Part shown: one piece after another, positions 1-3,000 of the stretch | How the letters are laid out: the number at the start of each line of letters is the position of its first letter | Numbering within the stretch: position 1 is the stretch's first letter | Assembly: GCF_056712565.1 (NCBI RefSeq) | Contig: NZ_CM160072.1 | Length of the DNA stretch: 64,000 bases | Reading direction: 5' to 3' (one strand) | Program-made: the position numbers

Positions 1-3000
1 TTTTTTCGCTCATATTCGTTTCAACCATTGCGCCGTGAATATCAAAAAAGCGCGAGCAAATATCGCCAGCAACCTGGCGGGCATTCAGGTCGTCACTCTC
101 TTCACCACCATAAAACGCATGCCAGTTAGCGCCGTCGCGAATGGCCGGTGAGCCAATTCCCACCAGGGCGACATCCAGATTATCCCAGTAGGCAGAGATG
201 GTTTTAAAGTGCTGAGACTGCATGATCCCATTACGAATTAATGGGTTATCCAGCAGCGCCGGAAAATCCGCGAGATGCGATTCCCCTTTCAGCTTCGCTG
301 CCGCGCTGTAGGTTAATGTGTTTACGTGATAGCGGCTTTCGAGTTTACCGGACGGGCCGCCAATAATCGGCACGCAAATTAACTGCCGCGATTGCCCCGC
401 CTGCGGCAAGTTTTCAACCAGTGCGCTCACCGCGCGGCCCCAGGAAAAACCGACAATATCGCCAGGTTCCAGCAAGCGATCCAGCAGTTGCGCGCCGTGT
501 AACCCCATCATCGCCAGTTGAATATCTTCATCCTCATCATTTCCTGACACCACCACAACGTCTTTCAGGCCAAACTTTTGCTTCACTTGCTGCTCCAGCC
601 AGAGATTTTCGTTGTAGTCATAGTTGATGGCGATGGTGACAATTCCCTGATCGCGGCCTCGTTTAAGCAAGCGGCTGATGGTAGTGCGATAAATACCCAG
701 TTCGCGCGCAATTTGCGCCTGCGTCATATCCTGTTCGTAATAGAGTTGGGCAATCTTCACAATCAAACGGATATCGTCACTGTTTTCCATTGCCGCCTCC
801 TGGTTCTGCACATTTGTGCAAATACGCTTTCTCACCGCTTGATCTGATATAACCCCATCATGATGGCCTTTCAAAGCGATTTTTCACTCTTTGCATGGGG
901 GGAAATAGCGCTTTCTCTTGCACATTTGTTTCTCTGCGTAGTAGTCATCAGCACAGGTGTGCAGCGATGCGTAATTTGTTGATTATTCTTATTTTGCCAG
1001 GCAAATTTGCATCGTACTTCCGGAGACACTTTTGTGATAAAAGGCGTGGCAGATCACATTTAATTTCGACGTTGCCGCATAACCCTGTTTTTCCCCGCTA
1101 AGAGGTACGGTATATTCCGCGTTTTACAGGAGAATTTATGCTGCCCGACTCATCAGTCCGTTTAAATAAATACATCAGCGAAAGCGGAATTTGCTCACGC
1201 CGCGAAGCGGATCGCTATATCGAGCAAGGCAATGTGTTCCTTAATGGCAAGCGAGCCACCATTGGCGATCAGGTGAAACCCGGCGACGTTGTGAAAGTAA
1301 ATGGTCAGTTGATTGAGCCTCGGGAATCCGAAGATTTGGTACTTATCGCCCTGAACAAGCCCGTCGGTATTGTCAGCACCACCGAAGATGGCGAGCGCGA
1401 TAACATTGTCGATTTCGTTAACCACAGCAAACGCGTGTTCCCGATTGGCCGCCTGGATAAAGATTCCCAGGGGCTGATTTTCCTCACCAATCACGGCGAT
1501 CTGGTGAATAAGATCCTCCGTGCGGGTAACGATCATGAGAAAGAGTATCTGGTGACGGTTGATAAACCGATTACCGATGAATTTATTCGTGGTATGGGGG
1601 CGGGAGTACCGATCCTCGGGACGGTAACTAAAAAGTGCAAAGTCAAAAAAGAAGCACCGTTTGTCTTCCGCATTACCCTGGTGCAGGGGCTGAACCGTCA
1701 GATTCGTCGCATGTGCGAGCACTTTGGTTACGAAGTGAAAAAGCTGGAACGTACGCGCATTATGAACGTCAGCTTAAGCGGCATTCCGCTGGGTGAGTGG
1801 CGCGATTTAACCGACGATGAGTTAATCGATCTCTTTAAGCTCATTGAAAATTCCTCTTCCGAGGCAAAACCTAAAGCGAAGGCCAAACCGAAAACGGTAG
1901 GCATCAAACGTCCAGTCGTTAAGATGGAAAAAACGGCGGAAAAAGGCGGTCGCCCGGCGTCCAACGGTAAGCGTTTTACCTCGCCGGGGCGCAAAAAGAA
2001 GGGGCGTTAATCAGCGTCTGCCGCGCGTCGACGTATTTGCTGACCAGCTAAATGACGCCTCAGGATCCGGTTTATAAGCCTGCTTTTTCTTCAATTGGCG
2101 GGCTTTTTTCGCTTCAGCCTCACGCTCGACCATTAATTTATCGATGTACTCTTTCTTAATGCTGTTAGTTTCGGAGTTGGTCAGTACGCGACCATGCGCA
2201 ATCCGCGCCCGATCCAGCAGTGTTTTAAGTTCACGCTGCTCGCGTTCAGTCATCTCTTTTTGGGTAATACGGGGGAGTGCCATAATGGTGCCCTCAGTGA
2301 GCCAGAGAGTTCAGTGTACGGGAATTCGTTTGCGAGCAGAACTGATAATATTCATTTTGCCTTCTCTTAACTATTTATCTCTTTCGATAATTAGTTAGAG
2401 ATGCGGATAAAAAATTAAAGGCAATTATTCTCCGATAAAGACGCTGGTTAACAGGGAATAGACTCGTTTATTTATGGGCATAATGACAAGAAAAACAATA
2501 CGGCCCGAAATAATGTCTTCCGGGCCATACTGTGTTTACTCAAACAAATTAAAATGCAGCTTCTGCACTACCTGCTCGGCATCTTCGCCGGGCACCAGGA
2601 AGCACAGGTTATGGCTGGATGCGCCGTAACAAATCATGCGAATGTTGAACGGTTCCAGTACGCCGAATACCTCTTTGCCAACGCCGCAGGCTTTTGACAG
2701 GTCATTGCCAATCAACGCGACCAGCGCCAGACCCTCTTCCACTTCCACCCGGCACAGTGCAGACAGCTCCATCAGCAGAGATTGCGTCAGCAACGTATCG
2801 CCAGTGGAGGTTGAACCGGTGGTATCAAGGGTTAATGCCACACTCACTTCTGACGTGGTGATTAAGTCTACCGAAATATTATGCCGCGCGAGGATGCCGA
2901 AAACTTCCGCGAGGAAACCGCGAGAATGCAGCATATTCAGGCTGTGCAAAGTGAGCAGAGTCTGATTGCGACGAAGCGCCAGCGCGCGGAACAGCGGCGG

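Follow-up and report, generated by a model that had tools for sequence, protein, structure and literature searches.

The gene that diverges from rluF in Escherichia coli K-12 MG1655 is pepE, 211 bp away. At the left edge of the DNA analyzed here, a 64,000-nucleotide stretch of contig NZ_CM160072.1 (assembly GCF_056712565.1; hereafter the window), rluF is instead adjoined by a gene for a sugar-responsive type of regulator. The locus raises three questions: which regulator this is and what operon it belongs to, whether that operon was gained by this strain or lost by K-12, and through which DNA sites the regulator might act. The features on which the answers rest are collected in Table 1.

Table 1. 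Features at the left end of the window (coordinates in window numbering; a point marks features given without a strand)
Feature	Position	Strand	Basis or remark
sorC, codons 1–263 of 315	1..790	−	translation, identity to K. pneumoniae SorC, Pfam
Divergent sorC–rluF control region, 347 bp	791..1137	.	between both gene starts
O1, candidate SorC operator, TTGCA-CAAATG-TGCAG (sorC sense)	806..821	−	5-6-5 palindrome
Invariant block GGGGTTATATCAGATCAA (sorC sense), also given as GGTTATATCAGATCA	839..857	−	94% conserved
Candidate −10 hexamer TATATC, weak, read by hand	851..846	−	within the 839..857 block
Candidate −35 hexamer TTGAAA, read by hand, 17 bp upstream of TATATC	869..874	−	70% conserved
O2, candidate half-operator AGAAA-CAAATG-TGCAA	918..933	−	direct repeat of the right half of O1
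O3, candidate operator CTGCA-CACCTG-TGCTG, palindrome	949..964	−	inverted repeat I1/I5
O4, weaker candidate TATCA-CAAAAG-TGTCT	1024..1039	−	third copy, repeat family D1
Conserved TGTGATC block, plus strand GGCGT-GGCAGA-TCACA	1043..1063	.	seven invariant bases, 1052–1058
35 bp common with K-12, directly upstream of rluF	1103..1137	+	pairwise alignment
rluF, 23S rRNA pseudouridine synthase, flanking core gene	1138..2010	+	

The regulator gene and its operon

On the minus strand, a stop-free frame extends from position 790 to position 2 and translates into 263 residues with the N-terminus MENSDDIRLIVKIAQLYYEQDMTQAQIARELGIYRTTISRLLKRGRDQGIV. The gene is missing from the window's ORF list because this frame runs off the left edge. 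Its 3′ end lies to the left, the window holding the 5′ five-sixths, and the full-length protein of 315 residues was taken from E. coli ATCC 11775, with which window positions 1–63137 agree base for base; megablast of positions 1–1137 returned 100% matches in many B2-type strains. The protein has a Sugar-bind domain (PF04198; E = 3e-79) over residues 58–315, and several helix-turn-helix models match residues 11–52, indicating an N-terminal helix-turn-helix. A comparison with all solved structures ranks SorC of Klebsiella pneumoniae first (PDB 2w48; E = 2.3e-182, residues 1–315 on 1–315), followed by the effector domain of a Shigella “probable sor-operon regulator” (3efb; about 98% identity); much weaker matches are Bacillus subtilis DeoR (E = 1.7e-39), LsrR (6e-29), and CggR (1e-6). 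The 263 residues encoded in the window align to K. pneumoniae SorC without a gap at 87% identity, and residues 1–46, in the DNA-binding domain, are identical. A search for contigs encoding the exact K. pneumoniae SorC sequence, as rebuilt from the 2w48 alignment, found none. Judged by these matches, the window gene is that for SorC itself, the orthologue of K. pneumoniae SorC.

With scores of only 213.7 on the NCBIfam DeoR model (NF053881; cutoff 420) and 133.9 on the LsrR model (NF011947; cutoff 486), with such identity to K. pneumoniae SorC over the aligned length, and with six sor structural genes adjoining, it is extremely improbable that the gene encodes a different SorC-family regulator (DeoR-, LsrR-, or CggR-like) of another sugar or nucleoside cluster, even though the family is common to all of these, the Bacillus DeoR and LsrR models are the best named NCBIfam models for the protein, and RefSeq calls the product merely a “sugar-binding transcriptional regulator”; the DeoR, LsrR, and CggR readings were rejected on match scores.

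The remainder of the operon, sorDFBAME, was read from the identical ATCC 11775 genome, sorC and the spacer being the parts inside the window. The order there is metH, two small ORFs, yjbB, pepE, sorE-sorM-sorA-sorB-sorF-sorD-sorC, rluF, yjbD, lysC, and pgi, and none of the seven sor coding sequences carries a pseudogene or truncation flag in the record. The PTS IIA, IIB, IIC, and IID proteins exceed the cutoffs of the NCBIfam mannose/fructose/sorbose models TIGR00824, TIGR00854, TIGR00822, and TIGR00828, respectively, and are recognized by Pfam as EIIA-man, PTSIIB_sorb, EII-Sor, and EIID-AGA. SorD, an SDR protein, scores 500.6 bits on NF004817, sorbitol-6-phosphate dehydrogenase (cutoff 304; E = 1e-150). 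The sor proteins other than SorE match their family models end to end. SorE, named L-sorbose 1-phosphate reductase in RefSeq, has zinc-ADH domains that are matched in part, and no SorE-specific curated model matched it; it is 84–96% identical to its counterparts in other enterobacterial loci (about 86% in Klebsiella). From this gene order and these family assignments, sorC is the first gene of a chromosomal sorCDFBAME operon that lies between rluF and pepE.

These results agree with much of what an earlier note on this DNA had proposed. It described a SorC-family gene upstream of rluF and transcribed away from it, with the same start, strand, and divergent orientation as found here, and it expected the rest of the operon just to the left, which is where ATCC 11775 has sorD, the PTS genes, and sorE. 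The protein comparison that it recommended, against K. pneumoniae SorC, gave the 87% identity above, and the two outcomes that it named as counting against its reading, a protein closer to DeoR or CggR and neighbors that are not sor genes, were both absent.

The encoded pathway begins with import of L-sorbose as sorbose-1-phosphate through a mannose-family PTS composed of SorF (IIA), SorB (IIB), SorA (IIC), and SorM (IID). SorE then reduces sorbose-1-phosphate to D-glucitol-6-phosphate, and SorD oxidizes the latter to fructose-6-phosphate. An experimentally verified counterpart of this gene set is the CFT073 operon c4981–c4987 (sorEMABFDC), which we liken to it by locus and gene content: the species, the B2-type locus, and the gene set are the same, and one of the cloning primers used for CFT073 anneals at window 1106–1134 beside rluF with one base missing (PMC2831201). 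When cloned in DH5alpha, the CFT073 operon conferred growth on L-sorbose (PMC2831201), and in ST131 and ST648 the sor operon is induced by L-sorbose (PMC12817954). Because the seven ATCC 11775 coding sequences are unflagged, and because of these published experiments in CFT073 and ST131, we strongly infer that the window strain uses L-sorbose. An operon that is present yet nonfunctional would leave the strain Sor-negative, as in Shigella strains that retain many sor genes and do not use sorbose (Lehmacher and Bockemuehl, as cited in PMC2831201). We consider this quite improbable here, given the unflagged coding sequences and their end-to-end family matches (the partial ADH match of SorE excepted), a sorC–rluF spacer that retains every conserved site, and the response to L-sorbose, as growth or induction, of the related B2 strains CFT073 and ST131.

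Junctions with K-12 and history of the locus

Alignment of the K-12 spacer with both sor junctions delimits the difference between the two alleles. The first 90 bp beside pepE are common to both, as are the 35 bp directly upstream of rluF, which include the likely rluF −10 hexamer TATATT. Window position 1102 is the last of the sor-specific segment; between the common flanks lie 85 bp in K-12 versus 6317 bp in the sor allele. The earlier note had held pepE to be absent from its K-12 place upstream of rluF. It is sorC that adjoins rluF, as that note said, but pepE has been displaced rather than replaced and is found 6.3 kb further left. On the K-12 map the pepE–rluF junction falls at 4.230 of 4.642 Mb, or 91.1 centisomes, just beyond metH. 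This fits the position near metH and iclR, at about 91 min, that the earlier note gave for sor, and a 1992 paper on the cloning of the E. coli sor genes places them, according to its title, “near metH and iclR” (cited in PMC9836092).

Of 5426 complete E. coli genomes, 2865 carry the complete 6317-bp segment (defined as at least 80% coverage); its location is chromosomal in every case, and it is nearly always a single copy. Another 2557 have the K-12-type junction, with an identity of at least 99% in nearly all of them, which brings the sum for both alleles to 5422 genomes. A presence and absence that split the species roughly in half could point to a recently acquired genomic island between pepE and rluF, with K-12 retaining the ancestral empty site. 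The REP-like repeats at the left junction would fit such an origin, as would the 85 bp of the K-12 allele, for which no counterpart was detected within the sor segment (best local alignment score 14, against a mean of 14 and a maximum of 17 for shuffled sequence). However, a survey of 44,208 genomes reports that sor is carried by more than 86% of genomes in every phylogroup but A (9.6%) and B1 (12.1%) (PMC12817954), GC content is 51.2% in the sor segment and in the window alike, and a search of the segment borders for an integrase, a tRNA, or a direct-repeat boundary found none.

Comparison across genera bears on the same point. In a scan of species-representative genomes, SorC relatives of 78–99% identity were found in 28 enterobacterial loci. 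Synteny was judged wherever the flanks of the locus were readable: Citrobacter, Klebsiella, Raoultella, Pseudocitrobacter, Cedecea, an Enterobacter species, and a divergent Escherichia lineage all have the order yjbD-rluF/sorCDFBAME/pepE-yjbB. The divergence of the Sor proteins matches that of the flanking core proteins: relative to Klebsiella, SorC, SorD, SorA, SorM, and SorE are 87, 90, 94, 96, and 86% identical, a range of 86–96%, similar to the 90–94% of RluF (94%), YjbD (92%), and PepE (90%). The mobile-island reading was rejected on composition, borders, and synteny, and recent acquisition appears unlikely. Because of the cross-genus synteny and a GC content equal to that of the window, we regard sor as a long-established locus that the K-12 lineage probably lost, rather than as a recent insertion. 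Argued from parsimony, the simplest reading is a single ancient loss in the lineage leading to most A and B1 strains, including K-12. The term “accessory locus,” used in the earlier note, is apt in the pangenome sense, with the segment carried by the share of genomes given above, but probably not in the sense of an insertion. Recombination through the conserved flanks could also carry the operon between lineages.

As a discovery the locus has small weight. The sor genes are a textbook case of a strain-variable carbon-source operon, and sorC and the L-sorbose operon are already known, having been mapped, cloned, functionally verified, and surveyed in populations, with the orthologous regulator crystallized. 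The additions made here are modest: a cross-genus synteny argument for the loss in K-12, and a set of explicit, testable candidate SorC operators. The sor-positive allele is useful as a marker, being characteristic of the phylogroups outside A and B1, and in this respect it fits the match of the window to ATCC 11775, the B2 type strain. In recent papers, sorbose use is tied to the fitness of extraintestinal pathogenic E. coli.

Candidate operators in the sorC–rluF spacer

In Klebsiella, SorC reportedly controls its own gene, sorC being the first in the operon. The C-terminal domain of SorC is a sugar-phosphate-binding double-Rossmann domain, and the tetramers of the subfamily are dimers of dimers. 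SorC is described as a repressor in the absence of L-sorbose and an activator in its presence (Woehrl 1990, as cited in PMC12817954), and the tetramers in which proteins of the SorC/DeoR subfamily bind DNA place one DNA-binding-domain dimer on each half-operator (PMC11229326).

Across the 20 other species of a 21-species alignment, the spacer has a mean identity to the window of 0.61, with sharply conserved islands and a background identity of 47% in unassigned spacer. Four of the conserved sites, O1–O4, have the common core CA-CAnnnG-TG, the best being TTGCACAAATGTGCA. O1, 16–31 bp upstream of the sorC ATG, is 98.8% conserved across the 20 species. Each of 25 loci contains its exact 15-mer a single time, and in every one of the 24 loci obtained by the genome scan this 15-mer is immediately upstream of sorC. 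The conserved half of O2, CAAATGTGCAA (918–928; 97.7% conserved), is an exact 11-mer repeat of O1 at a distance of 112 bp. In O3 the GCAC and GTGC arms are invariant and the center is variable, and O4 has a conserved core, ACAAAAGTG. The pattern CACANNNGTG is matched at four places in the 64-kb window, three of which fall within 230 bp in the sorC–rluF spacer. The window-wide count of this pattern, 6 matches versus 9.5 expected, is not above chance; only the clustering in the spacer and the conservation across species carry weight. The four sites are likely SorC operators, with O4 a weak candidate. They may already have been described in earlier work on Klebsiella (Woehrl 1990; de Sanctis 2009).

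A further conserved element, the TGTGATC block, bears a weak resemblance to a CRP half-site, as judged by reading of the consensus. Conservation of sites in the spacer could reflect other factors. A consensus scan of positions 700–1250 for sigma-70 promoters and terminators found nothing. Such a missing sigma-70 match might be expected of an activator-dependent promoter.

We propose that SorC would act through the four sites that carry the common core. O1, which has the likely promoter on one side and the ribosome-binding site on the other, would be the repressing site. O2 and O3, 31 bp apart from center to center and spanning about 47 bp, could together serve as a tandem operator bound by one tetramer, and their place about 85–120 bp upstream would suit activation or looping. 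These positions relative to the promoter are guesses, since no sigma-70 promoter emerged from the consensus scan. The overall reading, in which window positions 1–790 are sorC of the sorCDFBAME operon, the spacer sites would be SorC operators, and the locus would be an old one lost in K-12, has in our estimate a probability of about 0.95. A more speculative extension, which we hold to be doubtful, is that the O1–O4 array, kept throughout the family, lets a SorC tetramer loop the DNA and thereby pass between repression and activation, and that the sor deletion gave rluF a different upstream context. A single deletion in the K-12 lineage that stopped 35 bp short of rluF would have replaced everything upstream of the rluF −10 hexamer. 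If this is true, then rluF would be expressed from one upstream context in strains with sor and from another in strains without it.

Comparison with Klebsiella SorC and Bacillus DeoR

K. pneumoniae SorC (2w48), like the SorC of the window, has 315 residues and is encoded by the first gene of an operon of the same order, and in Klebsiella species the sor operon also adjoins rluF. The 35 substitutions that separate the two proteins over the 263 residues fall mostly around residues 76–100, at the start of the effector domain. In contrast to Klebsiella SorC, sor regulation in E. coli is known at the level of sorbose induction only (PMC12817954).

B. subtilis DeoR has the same domain architecture as SorC, and the DNA-binding domains of the two proteins are reported to be 48% identical. 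The DeoR tetramer binds a palindrome plus a half-site repeat, and its OL operator, TTGAA-CAAAAT-TTCAA, has the same 5-6-5 geometry as O1 (PMC11229326). The half-sites follow the same geometry, TTGAA-N6-TTCAA for DeoR and TTGCA-N6-TGCAA for the sor sites. The candidate SorC sites extend over about 230 bp, compared with 39 bp for DeoR. The relationship with DeoR is a distant one (E = 1.7e-39, below the NCBIfam cutoff), and the two proteins differ in function: DeoR, whose effector is deoxyribose-5-phosphate, acts by repression alone, and for SorC both activation and repression are reported.

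Boundaries of the sor segment and the rluF region

Over positions 1-63137, the window matches ATCC 11775 (NZ_CP033092.2, reverse strand), the type strain of E. coli, at every base; its source is therefore ATCC 11775 or a very near relative of it. Where the sor segment ends on the left, beyond the window edge, REP-like repeats are found 3′ of sorE in the sor allele and are absent from the K-12 allele. At the other end, alignment of the sor-positive and K-12 alleles shows that the sequence they have in common 5′ of rluF amounts to only 35 bp. This stretch contains TATATT, which is likely the -10 element of rluF and is kept in both alleles. 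Beyond it the sequence differs entirely between the two alleles, and thus the upstream promoter context of rluF differs as well. Downstream, the end of the convergent gene yjbD immediately adjoins the rluF stop codon; the corresponding junction in K-12 is longer by 132 bp and includes a GC-rich repeat, CCCCTCGCCCCTTCGGGAAAAGGGTTAGGGTGAGGGG, of a dispersed intergenic type.

Features in and beside the window (window positions unless a locus is named)
Feature	Coordinates	Location	Remark
REP-like repeats GCCTGATGCGCTACGCTTA and TGTAGGCCGAATAAGGC...GCATCCGGCA	6786-7076 of locus L001, left of the window	Left border of the sor segment, 3′ of sorE	
Sequence common to both alleles	1103-1137	5′ of rluF	
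rluF-yjbD junction	2010-2011		
Lysine riboswitch	3977-4173	5′ of lysC	Annotated in the identical ATCC 11775 record
Gene block	~29809-36971	Between dnaB and qorA	
pnuC and AAA-family ATPase gene	~39614-41166	Between alr and tyrB	
Gene cluster	~42623-56016	Between aphA and tyrB	Not in K-12 gene order
sorC-like gene of Kluyvera	10001-10921 of loci L024 and L025	Between rluF and pepE	

sorC in other species

In the alignment of the spacer, the ATG of E. coli sorC is matched in many species by ACG, ATA, ATC, or ACC (loci L008, L010, L013-L015, L017, L018, L021, L022, and L032). These same loci carry a conserved ATG two codons 5′ of the aligned position (AGATGGCG...), which is missing from E. coli. 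With one of these four triplets in place of the E. coli ATG, the upstream ATG is the likely sorC start in these loci. Two Kluyvera species also possess a sorC-like gene (70% identical), with none of sorDFBAME beside it; this gene may be a relic of the sor operon or a repurposed regulator.

Additional gene clusters and their probable counterparts in CFT073

The pnuC and ATPase genes lie between alr and tyrB, which are neighbors in K-12. In the aphA-tyrB cluster, genes for a sensor kinase, a sigma-54-dependent regulator, an Ldh-family oxidoreductase, and a DASS symporter accompany a second set of sucD, sucC, lpdA, odhB, and 2-oxoglutarate dehydrogenase E1 genes. Its putative equivalent is probably c5030-c5041 of CFT073, listed as a "2-oxoglutarate metabolism" block (PMC2831201). 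The dnaB-qorA block codes for a LacI-family regulator, an acyl-CoA:acetate/3-ketoacid CoA transferase, an enoyl-CoA hydratase, an MFS transporter, and an FAD-binding protein. Its putative counterpart in CFT073 is probably c5020-c5025, listed under "3-ketoacid metabolism" (PMC2831201).
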